Assembly: GCA_046759485.1 (NCBI GenBank)
Contig: JBHICF010000001.1
Span: 1-38,615, forward strand
DNA length: 38,615 bases
Reading direction: 5' to 3'
Origin: Nitrospiraceae bacterium
GTDB taxonomy: Bacteria; Nitrospirota; Nitrospiria; Nitrospirales; Nitrospiraceae
The position numbers and the translations under genes are program-made. Below, piece by piece: positions 1 to 38,615 of the stretch. The notes beneath the pieces are model-generated. The model was not told the origin of the DNA and did no database searches. It saw nothing but the letters and a program-made list of their open reading frames with translations. Positions within the stretch are counted from its first letter, which is position 1. Each line of letters opens with the position of its first letter.

Positions 1-233
1 GAGGTGGTGGCGTGGGACCACAGCGAGGTGGTGGCGTGGGACCACAGCAAGGTGGTGGCGAGGGGCCGCAGCGAGGTGGTGGCGTGGGACCACAGCGAGG
101 TGGTGGCGTGGGACCACAGCAAGGTGGATGCGAGGGGCCGCAGCGAGGTGGTGGCGCGGGGCCACAGCAAGGTGGTGGCGTGGAACCACAGCAAGGTGGA
201 TGCGAGGGGCCACAGCAAGGTGGATGCCGGGCC
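1..233 (+). repeat. Tandem 24-bp coding repeat, about 9.7 copies, running off the left edge of the window
   Basis: Units at 1-24, 25-48, 73-96 and 97-120 are identical (gaggtggtggcgtgggaccacagc). The other units differ at a few positions. Confidence 0.95.
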
Positions 234-687
234 GTGCGTCTCAGTTCGAATAATTGGTCACAGGGGCAACGTTCGCGGCGGTGTCGCGATTGGGGCTGTC
301 TTCACCGCCGAGGAATGGGTCGAGCGGTGCGGCTTGGTGGTCGAGGACGATTCGGTCATTCTCTACAAGGCTGCGGGCAGTCACTACAAGTCAGACTACA
401 ACCCGGATTACCGGTATGAAATCGGATCCGAGGTCGTGGCCCAAGATTGGGCCGACGACGGACAGGAGTGTGGTGGCGGGCTGCATTTCGGATGGAGTCC
501 GAGGGTTGCCTCGTCGTTTCATAGCGGCTACAAGCACATCGTCGCGTGCAGCGTGAAAGTGTCCGATATCGCGACCGTGCATGACGAGCATCGATACCCC
601 GACAAGTGCAGGGCCCGAGCCTGCACGGTGCTCTATGAGGTGGACCTCGACGGAAACCGTCTCGAAGAACAGGAGGATACATCGTGA
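1..687 (+). CDS. 5'-truncated repeat protein. At least 9 tandem octapeptide units (EVVAWDHS/KVVARGRS/KVDARGHS) precede a ~150-aa globular C-terminal domain with ILYKA...CGGGLHFG motif, resembling a phage DUF7666-type domain.
   Basis: Frame 1 is open from base 1 to TGA 685-687. A 24-nt coding periodicity spans 1-233. The stop overlaps the GTG of the next gene (GTGA). Confidence 0.75.
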   Translation, partial: EVVAWDHSEVVAWDHSKVVARGRSEVVAWDHSEVVAWDHSKVDARGRSEVVARGHSKVVAWNHSKVDARGHSKVDAGPCVSVRIIGHRGNVRGGVAIGAVFTAEEWVERCGLVVEDDSVILYKAAGSHYKSDYNPDYRYEIGSEVVAQDWADDGQECGGGLHFGWSPRVASSFHSGYKHIVACSVKVSDIATVHDEHRYPDKCRARACTVLYEVDLDGNRLEEQEDTS

Positions 688-968
688 GTGACCGCGCGAA
701 GTACGTGGACGTAAGCAAGCTGCGGGAACGGCTGGACGGGTTGCGGCCCAAGATGCACGGACCACCGCTCGAAGAATGGGCGACGACCAGGGACCTAGCG
801 ATCGACGAGTTCGGATCCATCATTGACGAGCTGGCCTACATGAAGGTCGATCACGACCGCATCTGGTTCCATGACGGCCGGCAGATTCCGGAGCCGTTGC
901 GGATTCTCGGCCCCCTTCCCGACCGCTTCTGCGGCTGTAGCGGCTCGCAGGCTCGGGATTCTCAATGA
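684..968 (+). CDS. Hypothetical protein (94 aa)
   Basis: GTG start has AGGAGGA 6 nt upstream. GTGA overlap with the upstream gene and ATGA overlap with the downstream gene. Confidence 0.6.
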   Translation: MSDRAKYVDVSKLRERLDGLRPKMHGPPLEEWATTRDLAIDEFGSIIDELAYMKVDHDRIWFHDGRQIPEPLRILGPLPDRFCGCSGSQARDSQ

Positions 969-1888
969 GGACTCTGATGAAGGCTGAGACGACGATCGCC
1001 CCTGAATTGCTCATCAACGAGCTAGGTGCCTATCGCCACCTGCCCCGGCACCTGCGCGGCCGGTACAGGTACATGCTCTTCGAGTCGTGCAGATTCCAGA
1101 CTGGGATCACCGGGGAGAAGGCAGAAGTCCGGCGCTGGTGCTACCTCACGCCGGACGGCGTGATTTGGATTGCAGGGAGATACCTCTGGGACGGCCCCAG
1201 CGGTCCTGCCATTGACACGTCATCGTTCATCAGGGGCTCGCTCGTTCATGATGCCCTCTATCAGCTCATCCGCGAGGGGCGGCTCGCGCGTCACTACCGT
1301 CGAGATGCCGACCAACTGCTGCGCAGGCTCTGCCGGGAGGACGGGATGTCGCGCATCCGCTCGTGGTGGGTTTACCGGGCCGTTCGGCTGTTCGGCTGGC
1401 GGGCTGTGCGCCCGGGCGCACCCGAGGTCGCGGAGCGCGAGGAGACCGGCCTCCTCACCGACACGCACGGGCCGGTCGCGGGAGAGGAGCGGTGTCCCGA
1501 CTACTGTGACCTCGACGTCCAGGAGCTTGGCTGCCTGCCACCAAGCCCTACAGATCTCACCTACCTGCTCAAGGTAGAGGCGAAGCTCACGGCGGTTCGT
1601 GCGGCCGCTCGCAGGCTTGGGATTCTAAGGGAGGACGCCATGGCTGAGACACGTACGCGCCCGCTCATCCGCTTCATCAACAGTCAGCGGCTGAAGGTGC
1701 AGATCCAGTGGGAGCCCCGGGACCTCTGGGTCGGCATGTTCTGGGAGTTGAGGCTCGTTCCGGTGCCGGAGGAGAGCGTCCAGATGAAGATCCTGCATGC
1801 CTATCTCTGCGTGATCCCGATGTTTCCGATTCACGTCACGTGGCTTGTTGACCTCCTCTGTTTCTACCCGGAGGCCCGCGATGGCTGA
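965..1888 (+). CDS. Hypothetical protein with DUF1353-like N-terminal half (WDGPSGP...SLVHDALY)
   Basis: ATGA coupling on the 5' side and an 8-nt overlap with the next gene. Motif recalled by eye only. Confidence 0.6.
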   Translation: MRTLMKAETTIAPELLINELGAYRHLPRHLRGRYRYMLFESCRFQTGITGEKAEVRRWCYLTPDGVIWIAGRYLWDGPSGPAIDTSSFIRGSLVHDALYQLIREGRLARHYRRDADQLLRRLCREDGMSRIRSWWVYRAVRLFGWRAVRPGAPEVAEREETGLLTDTHGPVAGEERCPDYCDLDVQELGCLPPSPTDLTYLLKVEAKLTAVRAAARRLGILREDAMAETRTRPLIRFINSQRLKVQIQWEPRDLWVGMFWELRLVPVPEESVQMKILHAYLCVIPMFPIHVTWLVDLLCFYPEARDG

Positions 1889-2906
1889 GAACACGGACAT
1901 AGAGTGGTGTGACGCCACCATCAATCTGTGGTGGGGCTGCACGAAGGCGCAGGTGGGCGGCCGTCTCGACGAAGCATGCCGACACTGCTACGCCGAGGCC
2001 GGCTCGAAGATGCGTGGCCACAGGGTGTGGGGTCGGAACGCCGAGCGACGGTTCATGAAGGACCCCCTCGGCCAGCTCAAGAAGTGGAACCGGTGGGCGG
2101 CCGAGGGCCGCTGCCGGGAGTGCAAGGGGCGTGGCTATCTAGGCGGCGACAAGGGGAACTACTGCAGCAAGTGCGGGCGCAGCGGGCGAGTACCGCCCTA
2201 CAACATCAAGGTCTTTGCGATGAGCTACGGCGACCTCTTCGAGAAGCACTCCGACGAGGCGATCAACGCCAGGATGACGGCAATCCGCGAGGAGTTCTTC
2301 GTCCTGGTGCCCAGGCTCCGCAACTTGACGTTTCTATGCCTCACCAAACGCCCTGAGAACGTGATGTGGATGGTGCCGAACAACGGCTCATTCCCCCCGA
2401 ACGTCTGGATCGGCACCAGCGTCGCGGACCAGGAGAGCCTCGACAAGCGCTGGCCGGATCTCGCGGCGATCCCGGCGCGGGTGCGGTTCGTCTCGGCGGA
2501 GCCGCTGCTCGAGGGGGTGGACTTTTCGTCGGCGCTCCACGATATCGAGTACGGGGCGCCCGGTGGCCCCGTCAGGCAGGCACGGAAACTTGAGTGGCTC
2601 ATCCTTGGCGGTGAGAGCGGCCCGAAGGCCCGGCCGTCTCATCCCCGCTGGTTCGAGTTCGCGATCGAACAGTGTCGGAAGGCCGGGGTGCCGGTGTTCT
2701 TCAAGCAGTGGGGGGAGTGGGCGCCCTGGAGGCCCAGCGACCGACGACCGGTACGGCCGACGGACATCTGTATGGAGCCGGACGGCTCACGGCGTCGCGG
2801 CTGTGATGCGTTGCCGTCGCCCGACTCGGCTTGGCTGCGACGAGTCGGGAAGAAGGCCGCAGGTGCGACGGTCCTCGGCCGGGAGTGGCAGGAGTTTCCG
2901 AGATGA
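1881..2906 (+). CDS. Phage Gp37/Gp68 family protein (DUF5131) with an inserted DnaJ-like zinc ribbon
   Basis: N-terminus MAENTDIEWCDATINLWWGC...CRHCYA is typical of the family. CRECKGRG...CSKCGRSG lies at about 2112-2189. Confidence 0.85.
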   Translation: MAENTDIEWCDATINLWWGCTKAQVGGRLDEACRHCYAEAGSKMRGHRVWGRNAERRFMKDPLGQLKKWNRWAAEGRCRECKGRGYLGGDKGNYCSKCGRSGRVPPYNIKVFAMSYGDLFEKHSDEAINARMTAIREEFFVLVPRLRNLTFLCLTKRPENVMWMVPNNGSFPPNVWIGTSVADQESLDKRWPDLAAIPARVRFVSAEPLLEGVDFSSALHDIEYGAPGGPVRQARKLEWLILGGESGPKARPSHPRWFEFAIEQCRKAGVPVFFKQWGEWAPWRPSDRRPVRPTDICMEPDGSRRRGCDALPSPDSAWLRRVGKKAAGATVLGREWQEFPR

Positions 2907-2931
2907 GCCGGCCCCCGGAGGACCACGAACG

Positions 2932-3405
2932 ATGAGGACCTACGACCTCGACCAGCTCCGCGAGTTTGTCCGCGAGAGCGAGCGAATCGAGGGAATTCAC
3001 CGAGAGCCTCGACGGGCGCAGGTCCGGGCCCACGAGCACTTCCTGGGCCTAGGGGAACCAGACCTCCAGGACCTCTGCAACGTGGCACTGTCGCTCGAGC
3101 CTCGAGCCCGCCTTCGTGAACAGCCGGCTATGAACGTGCGGATCGCCAACCACAGACCTCCTTCCGGAGGGCCGGAGATTCCCTCGCACGCCGAATTCCT
3201 GGTTCGCCAGGTCGTTCTCAACCGCGGAACGCCCTACCGACTCCATATCGAGTATGAGACCCTCCACCCATTCATGGACGGCAACGGCCGCACGGGTCGC
3301 CTCCTGTGGGCGTGGCAGATGATTCACCACGACATTTCGCCGGGAATTGACCTCGGATTTCTCCACGCTTGGTACTACCAGGGCTTGGATTTTGGACGGG
3401 CCTAG
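2932..3405 (+). CDS. Small Fic-domain protein (157 aa), probable AMPylase/NMP-transferase
   Basis: Canonical Fic motif HPFMDGNGRTGR at 3265-3300. N-terminal SERIEG at 2977-2994 fits the (S/T)xxxE(G/N) inhibitory helix motif. Internal ATG chosen because the upstream ORF extension overlaps DUF5131 and is R/S/P-rich. Confidence 0.9.
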   Translation: MRTYDLDQLREFVRESERIEGIHREPRRAQVRAHEHFLGLGEPDLQDLCNVALSLEPRARLREQPAMNVRIANHRPPSGGPEIPSHAEFLVRQVVLNRGTPYRLHIEYETLHPFMDGNGRTGRLLWAWQMIHHDISPGIDLGFLHAWYYQGLDFGRA

Positions 3406-24341: not shown

Positions 24342-25907
24342 TTAATGCGCTCGTCGGCCCATGACGACGCCACCCATGCGACGGTGCGCTGCCGTTCCTT
24401 GACGCCGCATCGCACGCGCTCGGGCATTCTGCATGCCGTAGCGCGTAATATCGTCGTCACGCATCGGGCTCGGCTCGTGAACGGAGTCGACGTGGCAGGG
24501 GTTCATCATGATCAGGTAACGCAGGGCGTCGCAGAGGTCGTCATCCTTCTTGAACGGCCTCTCAGGGGCGACCTGGTCCTTGTAGCGAGTCCGTGCCCAC
24601 TGGTACGAAGAGAGGGCCGAGATCAGCCGTGGGCAATTTCTGGAGATGAACAACTTCGGACGTTCGGTATTTGGACGCAGCGTGGCTCGAAGATAGCTTG
24701 ATACCGACGCGATGCCCGGCAGGACATCCGTATTCGCCAAGTTCGTGAAGACGCCATTCTCAGCATAGAGGTCTTGAATTGTTCGCTCGTCGCCTGGGTC
24801 GGAGTCGTTGCGTACCCGGCGCCTCGAGTCGTGCGAGATCGCCGTATCGGCGATTCGGTCCTGCCCCGAGAGGCGTCGAATCGACTTCGCGTGATCGTCG
24901 TGCACGGTCGAAGGTGCTCCGTGATACTCGCGATATACCCAAAGGTCGTTCTTGCGATTGGCACGTGCCCATAAGCACGCGGTTGGGTGCCGAAACCCGA
25001 TATCGATGGCCGAATAGGTCGTGCCGGTCGGAACAGGATGACTCGCAGGATTAAAGACATGTCCGCCGACGTGCGGCTCGTTCCAGTCGACGTAATCGGG
25101 GGAGAAATCTGGCCAGATCAGGCCCTCGAACTCCTCGAAGCTCGCCTCGTACTCGCGCCGAAAGATGTCCTCGGGAATCTCAGTCTTCTTCGATCGTAGC
25201 CAGTCCCGGTCGACGTAGGGATTCTCTTCCGTACGGCAACGGATACCGGCCCACCCCTTGCCCTTCGTCTCCTCTTCGAGGCGACGGTCAAAGTAGCGCT
25301 TGAACCAGCCACCCCCTCGGGGGGTCGAGATAAACAAGACGCGCCCATGACGGTCAATCGTGCACGGTTCGAGGTATTCCGTCCAAATGTCCTCGGCCAA
25401 GAATGCGCACTCATCAACGACAATAAGGTCAAGCTGCTCTCCCTTAAGTGAGGTTGGGGACTCGGCCGACTTACCGACGATGATGGCGCCGTCACACGTA
25501 CGGATGAAGCGGTTGTCCCGGGTCCAATTGGACTTCTCGATCGATCCGGGTCCGAGCACCTCCTCGATAACCAGCGCCTGCCAGACGATTTGCCATACAC
25601 GATCCGTGGTTTCATACTGAGGTCCAACGATCCATGTACGAGTTTTTGGAAATGATGCCGTATAGATGACCTCCCCGGCTGCGGCAATGGTCTTGCCGCA
25701 GCGCCGGCCCCACGGTGCGGCAAAGTAAATCCACTCCGGGCCGAAATGAAGCGCCGTCTGTCCCGGATGACGATTGACCCCGGCGAGGTAGGGGCGTACG
25801 TCGCCCGGGCGTATCTCCACCTTCCAGTTCGTGAAGATAAACGCCTTCCACTCACGGAGCTGCTCGGGCGTGCCGTAATAAGAAAGGTGCTCCGAGTGAC
25901 CCCTCAT
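24342..25907 (-). CDS. terL: Terminase large subunit
   Basis: Walker A-like GRRCGKT and Walker B-like LIVVDECAF. 521 aa, directly upstream of the portal gene. Confidence 0.9.
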   Translation of the reverse strand: MRGHSEHLSYYGTPEQLREWKAFIFTNWKVEIRPGDVRPYLAGVNRHPGQTALHFGPEWIYFAAPWGRRCGKTIAAAGEVIYTASFPKTRTWIVGPQYETTDRVWQIVWQALVIEEVLGPGSIEKSNWTRDNRFIRTCDGAIIVGKSAESPTSLKGEQLDLIVVDECAFLAEDIWTEYLEPCTIDRHGRVLFISTPRGGGWFKRYFDRRLEEETKGKGWAGIRCRTEENPYVDRDWLRSKKTEIPEDIFRREYEASFEEFEGLIWPDFSPDYVDWNEPHVGGHVFNPASHPVPTGTTYSAIDIGFRHPTACLWARANRKNDLWVYREYHGAPSTVHDDHAKSIRRLSGQDRIADTAISHDSRRRVRNDSDPGDERTIQDLYAENGVFTNLANTDVLPGIASVSSYLRATLRPNTERPKLFISRNCPRLISALSSYQWARTRYKDQVAPERPFKKDDDLCDALRYLIMMNPCHVDSVHEPSPMRDDDITRYGMQNARARAMRRQGTAAHRRMGGVVMGRRAH

Positions 25908-25915
25908 GTGTTCGC

Positions 25916-26410
25916 TCAGCTTACCTTCGGCGCGGGAAGCTCCTCGAACGTTCTTAGGTCCCTCTCATGCTGCATGGAGCGCATGGCGTCCATGAACTCT
26001 TCGATCCTTGATCTCCCGCTCGACTGCCCGTCGCTCTCCAGGTGCTGCGTCTCCTCGCGAAGATCTGACAGCGTCGACGTGATCGATTTCGTCATTCTCG
26101 TAAAGCTGAGCGTCTCGTCATAAGGGATCTCGCGCAGGCGTTGAATTGACTCTTCGATGAGATCAGAGAGGGCTGAGACGCGATCGATGCGCCGGGCGTA
26201 GGGGATTTCAGAGAGGCCGTGTGCGGTTCTCCAGTCCTCCAAGTCGCAGAGGAATTGGCCCGAGGATCGATACTTTCTGAAGCTGCACTGCTCGTACTCG
26301 TGCGCACCCTCATACAGGCGGTAGAACTCTCCGTGCGCGCTTTTGATACTGCGACCGATCAGCAAACCCACGAGGCCGACCCTCTCGCTATCCGTGAGCC
26401 TATCCAGCAC
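25916..26410 (-). CDS. Terminase small subunit candidate (164 aa)
   Basis: Assigned only by position, directly upstream of TerL. Confidence 0.5.
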   Translation of the reverse strand: MLDRLTDSERVGLVGLLIGRSIKSAHGEFYRLYEGAHEYEQCSFRKYRSSGQFLCDLEDWRTAHGLSEIPYARRIDRVSALSDLIEESIQRLREIPYDETLSFTRMTKSITSTLSDLREETQHLESDGQSSGRSRIEEFMDAMRSMQHERDLRTFEELPAPKVS

Positions 26411-30107: not shown

Positions 30108-30228
30108 TTTCGTCTGGCCACGGGTGCGCTTCGCTCCGTTTGTCGACCTCGCGCAACGACTTGATGCCTCGCGTAAGTGACTCTACCTCCCTGATGAGCA
30201 GGTCGTAGATCAGGTCACGGTCCGACAT
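30043..30228 (-). CDS. Hypothetical 61-aa protein, first gene of the minus-strand block
   Basis: ATG 30228 has AAGGAGG 5 nt upstream. Confidence 0.5.
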   Translation of the reverse strand: MSDRDLIYDLLIREVESLTRGIKSLREVDKRSEAHPWPDESDVPRGGSSGTTGGPQVKAGP

Positions 30229-30333
30229 CGGCACCTCCTTCTTCTTATTGCGCTTGTCCTCGGACGGATTGCGGAGCCAGCGCCCCTTGTTCCATCCCAA
30301 TGTGTACTCTTCGCTCGTCGTGGTCCGTACGGT

Positions 30334-30350
30334 ACACGTGATCCACGTGT
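30334..30350. promoter_or_regulatory. 7-3-7 palindrome ACACGTG-ATC-CACGTGT next to a minus-strand TTGACA (30353-30348)
   Basis: Read directly. Lies between the tRNA-like gene and the first late ORF. Confidence 0.3.
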
Positions 30351-30424
30351 CAACGCAAGTGCGCACAAGAAGAGGTAGTGGCGTCGTGTTACTGTTCGCT
30401 CGTGGCCACGGGTCCCTGGATGGG

Positions 30425-30533
30425 AGACCACGACGAGATTCGAACTCGCGTCACCAGTGGAAGCCTAAACAACGTCCCTTGGTGAAGACTCCCCTTGCAG
30501 GGGGGGCACCTTAGACCACTCGGTCACGCCGCC
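30425..30533 (-). tRNA. Aberrant class-II tRNA-like gene (~109 nt), Ser(GCU)-like layout. The anticodon loop is one nt short and the variable region is ~40 nt.
   Basis: Minus-strand read: GGCGGCG-TG-ACC-GAGTGGTCTAA-GGT-G-CCCCC(C)CTGCAAGGGG(AG)...GCGAG-TTCGAAT-CTCGT-CGTGGTC-T. D and T arms are canonical. The acceptor pairs 6/7, with 2 G-U pairs and 1 G-G mismatch. Confidence 0.45.
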
Positions 30534-30561
30534 TTCAGGGATTTACCCAAAAAGTCCCGAC

Positions 30562-30609
30562 TAGACCCTCTCGCCGCAGCTTTAGCGGGTTGAAGCGCGA
30601 GAGGGTCTA
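30562..30609. repeat. Perfect 13-bp stem hairpin (TAGACCCTCTCGC / GCGAGAGGGTCTA), 22-nt loop
   Basis: Arms at 30562-30574 and 30597-30609. Confidence 0.9.
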
Positions 30610-30631
30610 ACCCTAATGGGTTGTTTGTCGC

Positions 30632-30657
30632 CTCTGCCTACGCCGGGCTAGGCAGAG
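30632..30657. repeat. Perfect 9-bp stem hairpin (CTCTGCCTA / TAGGCAGAG), 8-nt loop
   Basis: Arms at 30632-30640 and 30649-30657. Confidence 0.9.
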
Positions 30658-30783
30658 ACTCGAATGCTCTCATCGGCATCCTCCTCATCCACGTCGTGAT
30701 TGGCCCACACGTAGCGGGCCGGAGACGCCACTACCCAAAGAAGATGTCCCCTACGACACCGACCGTGCTAGGATATGGACTAC

Positions 30784-30809
30784 GACCGTCCGTAAGAGTC
30801 CGGACGGTC
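30784..30809. repeat. Perfect 9-bp stem hairpin (GACCGTCCG / CGGACGGTC), 8-nt loop
   Basis: Arms at 30784-30792 and 30801-30809. Confidence 0.9.
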
Positions 30810-30812
30810 TTG

Positions 30813-30865
30813 GGGGCGACCAGGGCCGTTGCCGGGCAGGTACGGACTCTCGCCCTGGTCGCCCC
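30813..30865. repeat. Perfect 14-bp stem hairpin (GGGGCGACCAGGGC / GCCCTGGTCGCCCC), 25-nt loop
   Basis: Arms at 30813-30826 and 30852-30865. Confidence 0.9.
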
Positions 30866-30931
30866 ACTTCGAGGTGGGCCTCACACAAGTTGCATAGCCC
30901 CGGGACTTACGTCTAAAATAGCAAGAGATAT

Positions 30932-30972
30932 GCGATGTGAGGGAGAGCCTAAGGACAGCCGGCTCACATCGC
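30932..30972. repeat. Perfect 10-bp stem hairpin (GCGATGTGAG / CTCACATCGC), 21-nt loop
   Basis: Arms at 30932-30941 and 30963-30972. Confidence 0.9.
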
Positions 30973-31122
30973 CCATACATCGTCCACCGGCGGGGCTGCC
31001 CACAAGACGAACGTGCTCACGCACGATGGACCTACTGCTAGTGCTCTGACGGGTCCGGGCTCTTCAAAGGAACAGGGCTAGCGAACGACGGCCGGCGACC
31101 GACGGGCAACCTCAGTCGCACC

Positions 31123-31193
31123 GAGCTGGTTCGAGCTGCAGTCCACTTCGTCGCATCGGCGGGGGCTGGGACTGCTGCGCCTCGAACCAGCTC
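31123..31193. repeat. Compound hairpin: 13-bp outer stem (GAGCTGGTTCGAG / CTCGAACCAGCTC) plus 7-bp inner stem (GCAGTCC / GGACTGC)
   Basis: Outer arms at 31123-31135 and 31181-31193. Inner arms at 31138-31144 and 31169-31175. Confidence 0.9.
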
Positions 31194-31209
31194 CCTCTAA
31201 GCAAAGCTC

Positions 31210-31562
31210 TGTACATATGTACATGTACTCGTACACTCGTACATGTACACACCACATGTAGGGGGGAGATGGGTGTATGTACTGTACGACGTACGGCGTA
31301 CGGGCACGGGTCCCTCGTGCGGGGGGTGGGGGGGGTGTACGTGCGTGTTCATGTACACGAACACTCGTACGTGCGCTCGTGTGTACATGAACACGCACGT
31401 ACACGAGCATGGGTGGCGTACATGGACCTACTCGTCGTACACGTTCTCGTCCGTCGTTCGCGTCCGTTGTACAGTCCGAGCACCGTCAGCTCGAGCTGTA
31501 CGATCGCACGAGACGGGACGTGTACGTGGGGGGGTCATACGAGAGTGAAATGCACGCCGTAC
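31210..31562. repeat. GTAC-saturated iteron-like array (TGTACA, ATGTACAT, CGTACG palindromes), including two tandem 30-bp units and G6/G6TG8/G7 runs
   Basis: About 21 GTAC by hand count in ~350 bp. Units 31335-31364 and 31365-31394 match at 21/30 positions (GTACGTGCG...TGTACAYGAACAC). Confidence 0.9.
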
Positions 31563-31627
31563 ACACGAGGGGGCGCTCACGGGCGTTGTCGACCGAGAGC
31601 GACCTGGTGAAAAACCTCAGAAATGTA

Positions 31628-31657
31628 TTGACAGTGTGTTGTCAGGTGTGGTAGAAC
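31628..31657 (+). promoter_or_regulatory. Candidate early promoter: TTGACA (31628-31633), TG-extended weak -10 TAGAAC (31652-31657), overlapped by TGACA-N7-TGTCA inverted repeat
   Basis: Read directly. About 45 nt upstream of the first early ATG (31702). The -10 is poor. Confidence 0.3.
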
Positions 31658-31701
31658 TGCGGCTGCCCTATTAACCATACACGGGAGAACAGCACACACC
31701 A

Positions 31702-32346
31702 ATGACACTACACAGCAACTTGACGGTCCAGACCGAACAGCCAGACACCGAGTCGGAAACGCCGCTCTATCACCGATACGCGGGCGACGCCTACCCGCAG
31801 AACGCGTACCTGACCCTCGATCTCGAAACCGGCATGCTCAGCGCCGAGTGCTGGACGAACCCGGGCGGTGGGCGGTCGATGCGCGCACACCGCGGCGTGC
31901 AGCAACTACAGTTCCCGGTCAACGCCGCGATCCGCCGTGACGCCCTGGCCTCTGTCCTGGAGAGGACCCAACCGTACGCGCAGACCATTCTCGACCATAG
32001 CGTCGTCGAGTGGCAGAACGACAACCTGACAGGGCGCGTTAGCGAGCGGAGCGACGATGCTCGGCTCGCAATCGAGGAGATCTGCGAGAATCTCGAGCCA
32101 TCCGAGGTCGGCAACATGTGGCAGGCCGGTGACTGGATCACGGCCGGCGGCCAACAGCAGGCCGAGGACTACCTGCCCTCCATCGTGACAGCGACCGATC
32201 GCGAAATCGCCACCCTCGCGGCCATGACCTGCGAGGAGGCCCTCCGTGGCGACGATGTCGTGATCGAGGGTGGCGCAGCGGCTCTGGCCAACTACCTGCG
32301 CCAGAGGCGGGACGAAATTTCCATCGGTGAGGCACAATCGATCTGA
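31702..32346 (+). CDS. Acidic, lysine-free early protein (214 aa)
   Basis: First ORF of the + strand operon. 34 D/E versus 15 R and 0 K by hand count. Confidence 0.75.
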   Translation: MTLHSNLTVQTEQPDTESETPLYHRYAGDAYPQNAYLTLDLETGMLSAECWTNPGGGRSMRAHRGVQQLQFPVNAAIRRDALASVLERTQPYAQTILDHSVVEWQNDNLTGRVSERSDDARLAIEEICENLEPSEVGNMWQAGDWITAGGQQQAEDYLPSIVTATDREIATLAAMTCEEALRGDDVVIEGGAAALANYLRQRRDEISIGEAQSI

Positions 32347-32569: not shown

Positions 32570-33190
32570 ATGAGCCAGAAGCACGTTGATCGACTCCTGA
32601 GATCCGTGCCCGAATGGAACTCCTGGCGCCAGGAGAATCCCAGGGTCATACCGGACCTCACCAATGCAAACCTCGCCGGAGCAAACCTCACCAATGCAAA
32701 CCTCGCCGGAGCAAACATCGCCGATGCAAACATCGCCGATGCAACCCTCGCCAGAGCGGACCTCGCCGGAGCAACCCTCGCCAGAGCGTACCTCGCCGGA
32801 GCGTACCTCGCCAGAGCGGACCTCGCCAGAGCAAACCTCACCGATGCAAACCTCGCCGGAGCAAACCTCGCCGGAGCGGACCTCGCCAGAGCGGACCTCG
32901 CCGGAGCGAACCTCACCAGAGCGTACCTCGCCGATGTCCGGGGAATCATCGCCGCGCCCATAGCCGACCCCCGCGGACACACAGCGTTTTTCTGGAAGAA
33001 GCGCCAAGGGTCGTGGTGGGTCAACTCTGGATGTCGCTCCACGACCATCGCCCAGGCACGGAAACACTGGGGTGAGTACTACCTTTCTAGGGCCACCGCG
33101 GATATGACTAGCCGGGAAATCGGCGACCAATACCTCCGAGCGTTCGACTGGCTGGAGAAGCTACTGGCGGCGAGGGCCCTGAACGACTGA
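32570..33190 (+). CDS. Pentapeptide-repeat protein paralog 1 (206 aa): N-cap, ~19 A(D/N)LxG-type units, conserved C-terminal domain
   Basis: [24 protein letters not shown], then ANLAG/ADLAR units at about 32654-32935, then DPRGHTAFFW..WWVNSGCRS..ARKHWG. Confidence 0.9.
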   Translation: MSQKHVDRLLRSVPEWNSWRQENPRVIPDLTNANLAGANLTNANLAGANIADANIADATLARADLAGATLARAYLAGAYLARADLARANLTDANLAGANLAGADLARADLAGANLTRAYLADVRGIIAAPIADPRGHTAFFWKKRQGSWWVNSGCRSTTIAQARKHWGEYYLSRATADMTSREIGDQYLRAFDWLEKLLAARALND

Positions 33191-33763: not shown

Positions 33764-34453
33764 ATGAGGATACGTACCGACGCGCATGCACCCGCAGAGC
33801 AAAATTCCAATACTTACTCACCGCAGGCACCCGCGTTCGAGGACGCATTCGACGTACGTGATGCGATCGCCTCTGGGACCATCCGGTTCACGAAACGGCA
33901 TCGCATACCGGTCGGGCTAGACGCCCCGGCATTTCGTGCGGCGTGGCGGGAGTGGGTCCGCTACAAGGGCGGTCGCTACCTGCCCGTCTACCGGACAATC
34001 GACCTCGTTCGACTCGCCCTGCGTTTTGATGCGGACGAGGCAACGAAACAGATCCACCACGCGCTTGAGCGCCTGAACCGATTTTGCGTCACTGAAAACA
34101 CACCCCTGGGACCATCCAGGGGCGGGCCAGCCATCGGCGTCGATGACGAACAATTCGTTATCGGACCGCATCGATTGACGCGGGGGTGCGCATCGCAAAA
34201 CGTTGGAGAAATCTCGAGCGAGAGCTTTACGGTCCGCAGCCCACAGGACCTCGAACGCTGGATCTGGAGGCTCGAGGGATTCATACCACGCACACGGCAG
34301 GGATCGACACTCGCACACCTCGACGAGTCACACCCCGCTCGGCGGCAAGCCGCCGAGCGGGAATACGAACGGCGAATTCGACTGGCATTTCGAATTGCCG
34401 GACGGCTCGGGTACCGCATCGACAAGGACCTGCGCCGGGTCATCCGACGATGA
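33764..34453 (+). CDS. Hypothetical protein (229 aa)
   Basis: ORF track. Coupled to the downstream ORF (ATGATGA). Confidence 0.65.
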   Translation: MRIRTDAHAPAEQNSNTYSPQAPAFEDAFDVRDAIASGTIRFTKRHRIPVGLDAPAFRAAWREWVRYKGGRYLPVYRTIDLVRLALRFDADEATKQIHHALERLNRFCVTENTPLGPSRGGPAIGVDDEQFVIGPHRLTRGCASQNVGEISSESFTVRSPQDLERWIWRLEGFIPRTRQGSTLAHLDESHPARRQAAEREYERRIRLAFRIAGRLGYRIDKDLRRVIRR

Positions 34454-34701: not shown

Positions 34702-34712
34702 AATACGTTGTG

Positions 34713-34742
34713 TTGACATGCTCCGCACGCCTGCCCTATCAT
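34713..34742 (+). promoter_or_regulatory. Sigma-70-like promoter TTGACA-N18-TATCAT. The transcript would be nearly leaderless for ATG 34753.
   Basis: TTGACA at 34713-34718 and TATCAT at 34737-34742. Confidence 0.45.
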
Positions 34743-34752
34743 TCACGGGCAT

Positions 34753-34968
34753 ATGAGTGCGCGGCCTGAGGCCATCCATACCGATTTTTTGCACCTTCGT
34801 GTCTCGCCCGAGATGCGTACGCTGCTGAAGCGCGCGGCGTACGTCGAACACCGGCCGGTATCAAACTACGTCCGAATGGAGCTGCAACGCGCGGCTCGAG
34901 AGACGCTGCTGCGAGCTGGTGAGGAGTTGGGCGAATGGCTCCCCGAGGGTAAGGATGGCATACCCTGA
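34753..34968 (+). CDS. Ribbon-helix-helix protein, DUF1778/TacA-antitoxin-like (71 aa)
   Basis: LHLRVSPEMRTLLKRAAYVEHRPVSNYVRMELQRAARETL matches the LR(V/L)SPE..L..AA....S.FV pattern. Confidence 0.65.
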   Translation: MSARPEAIHTDFLHLRVSPEMRTLLKRAAYVEHRPVSNYVRMELQRAARETLLRAGEELGEWLPEGKDGIP

Positions 34969-35397
34969 GTGAGCCCAGAACAGCGCTCACTCGCACTCTT
35001 ACGCGAGCAGGGGTTCCACGTCGCCATCACCGAACACTGGAACCCACATGCTCGGCGCCGTATCGACCTGTTTGGCGTTATGGACTTGGTCGCATTCCGG
35101 CCTGGGACGCCAGGCGTTAGTGCGATTCAGGTAACAAGCGGATCGAACGTCACCGCTCGTTGCGAGAAAATCCTCAAATGGGATGCCCTGCCTGACTGGC
35201 TGGCCTGTGGCAACCGCTTCGAGGTCCACGGATGGCGAACCGTACGCTCAGCTCGTATTCTGACGTCCGGGCAAAGATCGCGAGCACGAGTCTGGCGCCC
35301 CCGCGTACTTCGCGCAGAGCTCCATACGGGCACACCCGTATGGAGCTCTGCGAATAGCGATCAACTGCCCAACGAGACGTCAGAAAAAACAGGTTGA
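34969..35397 (+). CDS. PD-(D/E)xK-like nuclease / Holliday-junction-resolvase-like protein (142 aa)
   Basis: LLREQGFHVAITEH...RRIDLFGVMDLVAF...IQVTSGSN core pattern. GTG start abuts the RHH stop. Confidence 0.5.
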   Translation: MSPEQRSLALLREQGFHVAITEHWNPHARRRIDLFGVMDLVAFRPGTPGVSAIQVTSGSNVTARCEKILKWDALPDWLACGNRFEVHGWRTVRSARILTSGQRSRARVWRPRVLRAELHTGTPVWSSANSDQLPNETSEKTG

Positions 35398-35422: not shown

Positions 35423-35468
35423 GTATTGACGGAACGTTGCCAAAGAACAGAGCAGAAAGGTGAGACAC

Positions 35469-36209
35469 ATGAACTTGATGGAACTTTGGAGGGCTGTCCG
35501 CGATGCCGAAATCAAAAAGGGCGCACAAGCGCAGCTCTCCGCGACGGTAATTCAGTCCGACGGCATGAAGCAATTCCGCGGCCGCGACTACCTGCAACTA
35601 CGCATCAACGACGGCTCCCTGAAATACCCTATCGCGATGCGGATTTACGGCGGGATGATCCAGTACGAAATTCCCATCGGTGCGCAGATCCTGGCCCATG
35701 TCCAGGTCGACGTATACGGTGACGCTCCCAGCATCTGCCCGATGACCCGGATGCAGCACATGTCCGTCAACGGACAACCGATGCCGGACACGGGCTATCC
35801 GACCGATCTCGTCCAGGTCGGACAGGGGCAGGGCTCCATCGCGCCCGGCACGATCGATATACCGAATGTCGCTTCATCGGCCTCCTCCGTACAGGGTCAA
35901 CTCGCACCTCCACAGGACGCACGAGACCGCCGACTTACGGCGTGGGACATGGTCCAGCGGCAGGAGGCGTTGCTCGCGTACTGGTCAGCACGTAACGGCG
36001 AGAAACTCAACGATGGGGCAGTCATGGCAGCGGTTAATGCCGTCCTCATCGCTATTAACAGCGGATCAGTAAGCGACAATGTGATGAACGTCCCGCTCTC
36101 ACTCGAGGGTCGACCAGGCGCTCCCAGCTACCCACCGGCACAAAGCCCGCAAGAGCCAGCGCCGAGCGTCGAGCGGATCGCGGTGGACGACGACGACATC
36201 CCGTTCTGA
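35469..36209 (+). CDS. ssb: Single-stranded DNA-binding protein with divergent OB region and canonical acidic tip
   Basis: C-terminus ...VDDDDIPF is an SSB hallmark, preceded by a P/Q/G-rich linker. AGAAAGG RBS lies upstream of ATG 35469. GTG 35460 is an alternative start. Confidence 0.8.
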   Translation: MNLMELWRAVRDAEIKKGAQAQLSATVIQSDGMKQFRGRDYLQLRINDGSLKYPIAMRIYGGMIQYEIPIGAQILAHVQVDVYGDAPSICPMTRMQHMSVNGQPMPDTGYPTDLVQVGQGQGSIAPGTIDIPNVASSASSVQGQLAPPQDARDRRLTAWDMVQRQEALLAYWSARNGEKLNDGAVMAAVNAVLIAINSGSVSDNVMNVPLSLEGRPGAPSYPPAQSPQEPAPSVERIAVDDDDIPF

Positions 36210-37480: not shown

Positions 37481-37593
37481 CCGAACCCCGAGACTCTCTG
37501 CCCGATCTCCGCCTCATCTGGGAGGACGGATTCCGGGCCGGCGTGAAGGCCGCCAGGCGGGCGCTCGACCGAGCCATCGAGGCGTGCCCATGA
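37477..37593 (+). CDS. Small ORF (38 aa) bridging the methyltransferase and paralog 2
   Basis: ATGA overlaps at both ends. Confidence 0.4.
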   Translation: MTEPRDSLPDLRLIWEDGFRAGVKAARRALDRAIEACP

Positions 37594-38357
37594 GCCAGGA
37601 GCACGTTGATCGACTCCTGAGATCCGTGCCCGGATGGAACTCCTGGCGACAGGAGAACCCGAATGTTGTGCCAGACCTCGCCGGCGCCGACCTCAGGTAT
37701 GCCGACCTCAGGGACGCCAACCTCAGGGACGCCAACCTCAGGCACGCCAAACTCATCAGCGCCAACCTCAGGCACGCCAACCTCACCGGCGCCGACCTCA
37801 AGTATGCCAACCTCAGATATGCCAACCTCAGATACGCCAACCTCACCGGCGCCTGCCTCGCCGCCACCAACCTCAGATACGCCAATCTCAGGCACGCCAA
37901 ACTCATCAGCGCCAACCTCAGGCACGCCCGTTTCAACTCATCCAACCTCACCGGCGCCAAACTCAGATACGCCGATCTCAGGTATGCCGACCTCAGGCGC
38001 GCCTGCCTCACCGCCGCCAACATCAGGGACGCCGATCTCAGGGATGCCGACCTCAGGGACGCCGAACTCTGGGGCGCCGAACTTACCGGCGTCACGGGGA
38101 TTCTCGACGCTCGCGTAGATGATCCCCGTGGGTATCGAGCGTTTTTCTGGCAGCAGCGAGGGGGCGAGTGGTGGATCAACTCCGGATGCCGTTCCATGAC
38201 TGTGGAGAAGGCACGAGAACACTGGGGGGGCGAATGTTACGTGTCGTCGACACCGTTGCCCGGTGACTGTACCGACAGGGAGATCGCAGATCGGTACCTG
38301 GAGGCCTTGGTTTGGCTGGAGGAGCTAACGAATGAGATGCAGGAGGCGCAGGCATGA
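37590..38357 (+). CDS. Pentapeptide-repeat protein paralog 2 (255 aa, ~27 units) with the same N-cap and C-terminal domain as paralog 1
   Basis: [34 protein letters not shown] units at about 37674-38087, then [25 protein letters not shown]. Confidence 0.9.
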
Positions 38358-38615
38358 ACCAAGAGCACGTTGATCGACTCCTGAGATCCGTGCCCGGATG
38401 GAACTCCTGGCGACAGGAGAACCCGAATGTTGTGCCAGACCTCGCCGGCGCCGAACTCAGGCGCGCCAACCTCACCGACGCCAACCTCACCGGCGCCGAC
38501 CTCAGGGGCGCCAACCTCACCGACGCCAACCTCACCGACGCCGACCTCACCGGCGCCGAACTCAGGGGCGCCAACCTCACCGACGCCAACCTCACCGACG
38601 CCGACCTCACCGGCG
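38354..38615 (+). CDS. Pentapeptide-repeat protein paralog 3, 3'-truncated by the window end
   Basis: ATGA overlap with paralog 2. Hand translation: [60 protein letters not shown]... Open to base 38615. Confidence 0.85.

Follow-up and report, generated by a model that had tools for sequence, protein, structure and literature searches.

The stretch of DNA analysed here (the window) is a whole contig of 38,615 bp with 61% G+C, and the element in question is an array of GTAC tetranucleotides at 31210-31562. The contig belongs to a tailed phage whose genes include that of a large terminase (24342-25907, minus strand) and those of a portal, a capsid, and an adaptor protein of the SU10 type; in a Pfam scan of the 144 open reading frames (ORFs) of the window, the latter three matched SU10_portal, SU10_MCP, and SU10_adaptor. 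A late, structural block extends on the minus strand from 3719 to approximately 30230-30366, and an early block occupies the plus strand from 31702 to the end of the contig. The two blocks diverge from a non-coding hub (30229-31701), which was delimited on a map of ORFs and of the G+C content at third codon positions (GC3) and measures 1473 bp with the ATG at 30228 as the start of the first late gene, or 1335 bp with the GTG at 30366. No ORF with a coding-type GC3 was found in the hub. The array occupies its right-hand quarter, and the same map confirms the location between divergent late and early blocks that the original prediction, made from the letters of this DNA, had given. The only sigma70-like promoter in the hub, P1 (TTGACA-N18-TAGAAC, 31628-31657, plus strand), points towards the first early gene, and its start lies 66 bp beyond the right end of the array (31562) and 69 bp after the start of the last GTAC. 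A sigma70-like promoter facing the late block was not found in the hub, and two more sigma70-like promoters are located within the early block (at 34713 and 35394).

The array contains 21 GTAC tetranucleotides, which is one per 17 bp, and the remaining 38,262 bases of the window contain 133. It had been estimated that about 21 copies occur in some 350 bp where one or two would be expected, and this estimate proved correct, as the expectation is approximately 1.2 per 353 bp (Poisson p 4.5e-19). The enrichment is local, since a count across the whole window places GTAC outside of the array at its expected density (133 observed versus 128 expected, ratio 1.04), and no avoidance of any 4-bp palindrome was found in this genome. 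When the region was shuffled 2000 times with preservation of its own dinucleotides, 9.65 +/- 2.08 GTAC were obtained with a maximum of 17, so that the observed number lies 5.5 standard deviations above the shuffled sequences. Furthermore, 21 of the 26 TA steps in the array are found inside GTAC. The excess over the shuffled sequences indicates that GTAC itself has been selected, rather than a mere richness in GT, TA, and AC or a mere alternation of purines and pyrimidines. The flanking bases are constrained as well, with a pyrimidine before and a purine after the core (YGTACR) at 19 of the 21 sites, compared to 49 of the 133 sites elsewhere (Fisher p 4.6e-6). The sites had been described as lying mostly within palindromic hexamers, which holds for the relaxed form YGTACR but not for the strict one, because only nine of the 21 are TGTACA (six) or CGTACG (three). 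Tallies of the half-sites point to a weak extension towards C-R-Y-GT|AC. Six of the seven copies of TGTACA in the window are located in the array, and 22 of its 62 copies of GTACA/TGTAC fall within 300 bp.

The array is composed of three sub-arrays and a sparse tail. Sub-array A (31210-31249) has six GTAC with spacings of 8, 6, 6, 8, and 6 and includes a five-site dyad unit, TGTACATGTAC-N10-GTACATGTACA (31218-31249), in which the fifth GTAC is placed one base off the axis; it is closed by a G6 run (31261-31266, plus strand). Sub-array B (31279-31303) has four GTAC with spacings of 5, 7, and 7 that form heptad direct repeats of GTACGNC, including two GTACGG. Approximately 17 bp past sub-array B, after the stretch GGCACGGGTCCCTCGTGC, follows a G6TG8 tract (31321-31335, plus strand), and this leads into sub-array C (31335-31404), a 24-nt inverted repeat with five GTAC at spacings of 16, 14, 16, and 16. 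Its arms (31335-31358 and 31381-31404) are complementary at 24 of 24 positions and are separated by a 22-nt spacer, whereby the central GTAC is again one base off the axis. Folded as a DNA hairpin, the inverted repeat of sub-array C reaches -30.7 kcal/mol (z -6.95). Two tandem 30-bp units had been proposed for this part, and they do match at 21 of 30 positions, but they form part of the perfect inverted repeat, which is the stronger structure. A 28-nt direct repeat with 86% identity is common to sub-array C and the core of sub-array A, and in the copy of sub-array C two GTAC have decayed to GTTC and GAAC; sub-array C can therefore be regarded as a stretched version of sub-array A. The tail (31418-31562) contains six GTAC at spacings of 19 to 37 bp and is interrupted by a G7 run (31528-31534, plus strand). 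The G6, G6TG8, and G7 runs are found exactly where they had been placed, and four of the 14 G/C runs of at least six bases in the window lie in the array, all with G on the plus strand.

One and the same GTAC core is thus kept across several periods (6, 7, 8, and approximately 15 bp), which argues for selection on a binding site rather than for slippage. An origin through tandem repetition or slippage was also rejected on the grounds that Tandem Repeats Finder finds only short pieces of differing period. Coding of a protein by the array was rejected in agreement with the earlier view that no plausible ORF exists here, because the ORFs of 101-113 amino acids (aa) across it have a non-coding GC3 of 0.59-0.63, in comparison to 0.70-0.81 in the neighbouring genes. 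A known RNA was not found in the Rfam scan at gathering thresholds, and a permissive scan gave only sub-threshold matches of microRNA hairpins to the inverted repeat, which reflect its TG/CA-rich hairpin. It can be regarded as almost certain that the array is a functional field for protein recognition, located in the cis-acting centre of the genome.

The reading that we prefer, with a probability of roughly 35%, is that the field is bound by a ribbon-helix-helix (RHH) protein of the phage and serves as a switch between early and late expression. A palindromic hexamer such as YGTACR suits a two-fold symmetric dimer that inserts into one major groove, and recognition of dyads is supported by the two five-site inverted-repeat units, the second of which has fully complementary arms. 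The position of the array, within the hub and 66 bp upstream of P1, speaks for a switch as well. The candidate binder is a 71-aa RHH protein with a TacA1/DUF1778 N-terminal domain (34753-34968, plus strand), which was matched to PF08681 (E 3.4e-7, 30.6 bits at a cut-off of 21) and is the one clear DNA-binding protein in the Pfam scan. Its best match in the PDB is the TacA-type chain 7ak7_C, and its structure model shows helices at residues 19-32 and 38-62; a fold search with the model of the monomer gave no significant match. The gene has its own promoter (TTGACA-N18-TATCAT at 34713), and the array lies approximately 3.2 kb (3,191 bp) upstream of it. A 10-mer, TGTGTTGWCA, occurs exactly twice in the window, once at P1 (31635-31644) and once at the RHH promoter (34709-34718), and may be the operator of a second regulator.

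In the crystal structure of KacA with its operator AAATGTACGGTTATTAACCGTACATGA, each RHH dimer reads GTACGG, and R12 contacts the G of GTAC, while D10 and R8' contact its C:G pair (PMC6698736). The corresponding operators of the family were collected from eight upstream regions, seven of them belonging to annotated DUF1778 antitoxin genes of plasmids and one to an unannotated metagenomic relative of the phage RHH gene (L046). The arrangement GTACGG-N7-CCGTAC was found exactly as in KacA in three of these eight regions, the variant ATACGG-N7-CCGTAT in one, the more degenerate ATACGG-N7-CCGCAT in another one, and a single half-site in a further one, whereas two contained none. A GTAC-type core can thus be considered a trait of the family. 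The arginine equivalent to R12 of KacA is kept in the phage protein (R16), and the GTAC-to-GTAC spacing in sub-array C is 14-16 bp, compared to 15 bp in the family operators. The array hence has in common with the TacA, AtaR, and KacA operators the GTAC core read by the RHH sheet, the spacing of approximately 15 bp, and the inverted arrangement. The difference is that those operators consist of a single GTACGG-N7-CCGTAC palindrome that overlaps the promoter of the antitoxin itself and is followed by a gene for a GNAT toxin, whereas here 21 sites of the YGTACR type are present, none of which is canonical and none of which is accompanied by a GNAT partner. The RHH protein is therefore to be taken as a specific and testable lead and not as a demonstration.

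If the lead is correct, dimers of the early-expressed RHH protein would bind the YGTACR sites cooperatively and would coat the hub, with the sites distributed over a compact five-site dyad, the heptads, and an expanded five-site dyad, which are parted by G-runs and followed by a thinning tail. Such a coat could set the early-to-late switch by closing the early promoter P1 (31628), by helping to open the late block, or by both; a sigma70-like promoter of its own is absent from the late block. The closest working analogies are the p4/p6 control region of phage phi29 and the multi-repeat RHH arrays of omega, ParG, and MetJ, with which the array shares many short sites in close succession and would share a cooperative nucleoprotein complex between diverging promoters. 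The 7-bp heptads of sub-array B are as in the omega sites, and the nearest match in motif style is the met-box of MetJ, an 8-bp palindrome with an ACGT core. Yet the array differs from all of these in having more sites and more mixed spacings, and no homologue of p4, p6, omega, ParG, or MetJ was identified.

Several points weigh against an RHH-bound switch. The canonical operator ([GA]TACGG-N7-CCGTA[CT]) is absent from the whole window, and the array holds only three isolated (G/A)TACGG half-sites (31291, 31298, and 31557). Two of the three base-contacting residues of KacA are changed in the phage protein (R8 to F12 and D10 to H14), so that its strand reads F-L-H-L-R, where the family has R-x-D/E-x-R, and only the last arginine is kept. 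Unlike the promoters of autoregulated antitoxins, the RHH promoter is without GTAC, the nearest copies being located at 34411 and 34817, and GTAC is also absent upstream of P0064, which is 51% identical over the RHH domain and is the nearest relative of the protein with a readable gene context. The gene downstream does not encode a GNAT toxin, and no GNAT family was found among the 144 ORFs. Concerning the array itself, sites that are only 5-6 bp apart cannot all hold RHH dimers simultaneously, 21 sites exceed the number in typical operators, and the array does not overlap P1. Moreover, a GTAC array was found in no relative of the phage, so that co-variation lends no support.

The downstream gene in question (34969-35397, plus strand) encodes a 142-aa protein and starts directly after the RHH stop codon. 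With its GTG start right at that stop and a strong promoter of their own, the two genes form a tight pair (34753-35397) whose arrangement looks like that of a toxin-antitoxin pair. No match to the 142-aa protein was found in Pfam, NCBIfam, PHROGs, or the PDB, and its structure model is unusable (predicted local distance difference test 39). Inspection by eye suggests a possible PD-(D/E)xK-like motif (DLVAF...IQVT).

As a tentative alternative, the hub may hold the physical ends of the genome in the form of a short direct terminal repeat, in which case the GTAC field would represent the repeats that are recognized by the terminase or its small subunit when concatemers are cut. The SU10/phiEco32-type structural module of the window, whose families are also found in the relatives, speaks in favour of this explanation. 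The best-studied phage with this module is phiEco32, whose late block begins at the left terminus of the genome and whose early block begins at the right one. Once genomes are joined into a concatemer, both blocks point away from a non-coding junction of 840 bp that includes a terminal repeat of 193 bp, and the layout of diverging blocks in the window is the same. The phiEco32 junction carries five ACGGGG in approximately 410 bp, compared to two in 25 kb elsewhere (L054 2540-2960 / L053 1-193), and at the left end of T7 some 12 CCTAAAG follow each other at steps of 13 bp in the interval (175-341) that separates the terminal repeat from the early promoters A1-A3. All three regions thus present a dense short motif in non-coding DNA between late genes and early promoters. 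Important to note here is that the motifs of T7 and phiEco32 are asymmetric direct repeats in one orientation (regular at 13 bp in T7), whereas the sites in the window are palindromic and irregularly spaced. In phiEco32, TGTACA is moreover found 5 bases (AGTGCT) before the left repeat boundary, and both boundaries read GCT|AG.

A further packaging site that resembles the array in form only is pac of phage P1, in which seven TGATCA/G hexamers control cleavage through their Dam sites (PMC10028697). In phage P1, the cut is made between the groups of hexamers and depends on methylation of their core. Both have repeated hexamers with a methylatable 4-bp palindromic core, flanks that are constrained to purines or pyrimidines, and irregular spacings in two groups, and the phage described here encodes a methyltransferase of the Dam family. 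The pac site of phage P1 differs in that its seven hexamers lie in 161 bp inside pacA, whereas 19-21 sites are found here in 350 bp of non-coding DNA that is far from the terminase genes. The array is located approximately 4.8 kb from the gene of the presumed small terminase (25916-26410, minus strand) and 5.3 kb from that of the large terminase, which counts against a role in packaging. The presumed small terminase (164 aa) was assigned by its position directly upstream of the large terminase and gave no family match. Likewise, the large terminase is only 27% identical to that of phiEco32, over a part of the protein, and the packaging mode of phiEco32 can therefore not be transferred.

The recurrence of GTGGGGGGG at 31326 and 31526 is consistent with genome ends, as the distance of 200 bp is near the length of the 193-bp repeat of phiEco32. 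Large non-coding regions between divergent genes also occur in relatives and measure 1.1-1.2 kb at the terminase-block junction in L002 and L049 and 0.9 kb in L050, where the region lies away from that junction; the terminase-block junctions of L003, L050, and L051 extend over only 0.1-0.6 kb. On the other hand, the region is spanned by the assembly. An independent Logan contig of 1.2 kb breaks at 31383, for which low coverage is the simplest explanation because the terminase protein was found on no other contig. A left-hand neighbour of this contig was looked up and none was found, and the break was discounted as evidence of a terminus given the fragmentary assembly of the run.

A replication origin is a doubtful explanation, in which the initiator would bind to the GTAC repeats, melting would take place at the low-GC alternating TGTACATATGTACA stretch or at the cruciform, and the G-runs on one strand would stabilize the priming RNA-DNA hybrid. 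In its favour, transcription on both arms is directed away from the hub, and forks leaving the hub would run along with it, and the left edge of the array has the lowest local G+C content (0.42 in the 40-bp bin 31200-31239). The four G-runs share one strand, the G6TG8 tract resembles the G6AG8 of the mitochondrial conserved sequence block II (CSBII), and the early block encodes a protein similar to single-stranded DNA-binding protein (SSB). Moreover, both viral contigs that matched a pattern of five GTAC defined by spacing only have GTAC repeats directly upstream of initiator-like genes. One of them (L007, 7590-7700) has 23-bp iterons (AGTACTTTGTACAAAACGTACAT, approximately five copies) and AT-rich repeats before a Phg_2220_C protein, and the other one (L008, 7900-8250) has TTTGTACC-N8-GGTACAAA palindromes before a RepL-like protein; both are IMG/VR contigs that are unrelated to the window. 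Iteron-like regularity is nevertheless absent from the array, since the positions of the sites show no significant periodicity (best Rayleigh R 0.47 versus a 95th percentile of 0.59 for the null), and its units are 6-bp palindromes instead of direct iterons of 17-22 bp. No initiator, helicase, primase, or polymerase was recognized among the 144 ORFs of this incomplete contig, on which most early proteins are without a family; the product of the adjacent first early gene is acidic (isoelectric point (pI) 4.4), and the GC skew does not turn at the hub.

It is very unlikely that the array acts as a methylation-sensitive cluster in the first place. According to this explanation, an adenine methyltransferase of the phage or of the host would generate N6-methyladenine in GTAC (GTm6AC), and the hemimethylated or fully methylated state would gate a process at the hub, as do the GATC clusters at oriC of E. 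coli and at pac of phage P1. A candidate enzyme is available in the divergent Dam-family (D12) N6-adenine DNA methyltransferase of the phage (36377-37480, plus strand), and an irregularly spaced 4-bp palindrome has the look of methylation clusters. GTAC-specific N6-adenine methyltransferases are known (M.PabI and M.HpyAXII), and such methylation regulates a GTAC-dense region of an H. pylori plasmid (PMC10273834). Yet the specificity of the phage enzyme cannot be read from its sequence, its nearest structural relatives being GATC enzymes, and the strong Y...R constraint on the flanks exceeds what a 4-bp methylation site requires. Methylation would also be superimposed on the other models instead of being a function by itself.

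The array is also the top 350-bp stretch of the window for alternation of purines and pyrimidines (0.686 versus 0.494 +/- 0.038, z about 5), the array region contains 10 of the window's 30 alternating runs of at least 10, and the G6TG8 block has the highest G-quadruplex propensity of the window (G4Hunter-type score 2.32 over 31308-31349). These properties, together with the perfect 24-bp hairpin arms and the internal 28-nt duplication, would fit an element without any sequence-specific reader, that is, a non-B-DNA element (Z-DNA-prone tracts, cruciform, and G-quadruplex runs) that takes up the negative supercoils arising from divergent transcription, a simple sequence grown by slippage or duplication, or a restriction decoy, but this is the least credible explanation, because GTAC exceeds what alternation or dinucleotide content would yield, one core is kept over several repeat periods, and a decoy has nothing to protect where GTAC is not avoided elsewhere.

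The explanations discussed so far are not mutually exclusive. Among the four roles listed by the original prediction, the operator field and the packaging or terminal-repeat region have gained support and the origin is possible, whereas the decoy or target cluster against a global avoidance of GTAC was rejected by the counts given above. Its judgement that the choice between these roles cannot be made from the sequence alone still holds.

A number of other DNA-binding systems were considered and rejected. The operators of YefM/Phd antitoxins have TGTACA cores that are 12 bp apart (PMC4803016), and the array resembles them in its TGTACA hexamer and in the 12-bp pairs of sub-arrays A and B; however, no protein of the Phd/YefM family and no match to PF02604 was found among the 144 ORFs. 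The late promoters of phiEco32 contain the element tAATGTAtA (PMC8948821), which ATGTACA resembles. A promoter for a phage sigma factor was rejected, as a phmmer search with gp36 of phiEco32 against the ORFs of the window gave nothing better than E 0.7. Six copies of ATGTA[CT]A are present in the array and one inside the portal gene, and the motif does not recur upstream of the late genes. An NtcA-type spacing (GTA-N8-TAC) did not fit when it was checked by hand against the spacings of the sites, and LexA-type boxes occur as isolated near-matches, which would not account for as many as 21 sites.

The phage belongs to a lineage that is known only from metagenomes. Its closest terminase, found in a collection of 5.8 billion proteins, is 53% identical, while those of isolated phages are below 30%. 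Searches of the window with megablast and blastn against 50,697 phages gave no match, nor did a tblastn search of the RHH protein against phages, and protein-seeded scans of IMG/VR returned no close relatives. In the collection of 5.8 billion proteins, the RHH protein and the first early protein retrieved only themselves. Close relatives that could provide a comparative proof were thus found in none of the collections searched. Six related loci with terminase identities of 40-46% (L002, L003, L005, and L049-L051) have the same layout of diverging blocks, some of them with large non-coding regions, but none of the six contains the GTAC array, and their best k-mer clusters reach p values of approximately 1e-9, compared to 1e-33 here. 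One of them (L050, 40% terminase identity) has a 450-bp non-coding region with C/G runs (1900-2350), in which TACG (17 versus 3.9 expected), ACGT (11 versus 2.1), and GTAACG (5 versus 0.3) are enriched. This milder cluster may be a counterpart of the array with a different motif.

The spacing pattern of six sites was matched by none of the viral contigs and 37 times in metagenomes. Approximately 30 of the latter matches are unrelated satellite-like repeats, and six are GTAC-saturated contigs (L013, L015, L020, L023, L026, and L038) with, for example, 242 GTAC in 13.2 kb or 143 in 5.5 kb. These six contigs have a G+C content of 46-53% and recurring strings such as GTGTACAGCTGTACACGTACGTGTAC, and they are unrelated to the window.

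Arrays of short binding sites in the control and terminal regions of phages are well known. What is distinctive here is that the sites are so dense, that their unit is purely palindromic, that they are arranged in nested dyads, and that G-runs accompany them. No comparable array was found in the six related loci examined or in any annotated phage. If a TacA-type RHH protein is the reader, the DNA-binding module of an antitoxin would have been reused as a master regulator of a phage, with an operator code that is easily tested. If the array instead marks the ends of the genome, a packaging signal would be defined for the whole group. In either case, the array identifies the cis-acting centre of the genome. 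A more far-reaching scenario, which we consider unlikely, combines these elements: an SU10-like lytic phage would have freed a TacA/DUF1778 RHH protein from its toxin-antitoxin setting and expanded a two-site operator into a 21-site field with G-runs and a cruciform-forming repeat, and the resulting structural switch would sense occupancy, supercoiling, or methylation at the concatemer junction and thereby couple early shut-off, late transcription, and possibly the formation of ends.

The left part of the hub contains further elements. Four inverted repeats with long stems (30562-30609, 30813-30865, 30932-30972, and 31123-31193) have arms of 10-19+ bp and spacers of 21-33 nt, and the DNA folding of the first, second, and fourth gave z values of -3.6 to -5.6. 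These repeats may act at the RNA level, as structured leaders of the late transcript, or as dyads to which proteins bind. A tRNA-like element (30425-30533, minus strand) scored 31.8 bits against the Rfam tRNA model with its gathering score of 29. Its D-loop is of the class-II type, its variable region is very long (approximately 37 nt), the acceptor stem is mismatched, and the anticodon can be read as either GCA or UGC; the element was not called by ARAGORN and was missed by the default Rfam scan.

In the early block, the first gene (31702-32346, plus strand) encodes the acidic 214-aa product mentioned above, which was assigned to DUF8280 from precomputed Pfam matches. The SSB-like protein (35460-36209) is acidic and has 249 aa, and its C-terminus, DDDDIPF, is the signature tip of bacterial SSB; no match to a Pfam, PHROG, or NCBIfam family was found for it. 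Three pentapeptide-repeat proteins are encoded as well (32570-33190, 37584-38357, and 38354-38615; Pfam Pentapeptide, E down to 9e-51). Proteins of this kind are able to mimic DNA, which makes the three of them candidates for a role in anti-restriction or in the targeting of gyrase.

The third of these genes (38354-38615) is cut by the end of the contig. The start of the contig (1-223, ORF 4-687) in turn lies inside a tandem repeat (24 bp x 9, or 72 bp x 3) that encodes an 8-aa repeat of a DUF7666 protein. As both ends of the contig are situated within coding repeats, the genome is probably incomplete by a few kb. The ORF at the start belongs to a group of plus-strand genes (4-3405), at the far end of which (1845-3405) a DUF5131 (phage Gp37/Gp68) protein is encoded, followed by an ORF with a Fic/DOC motif.

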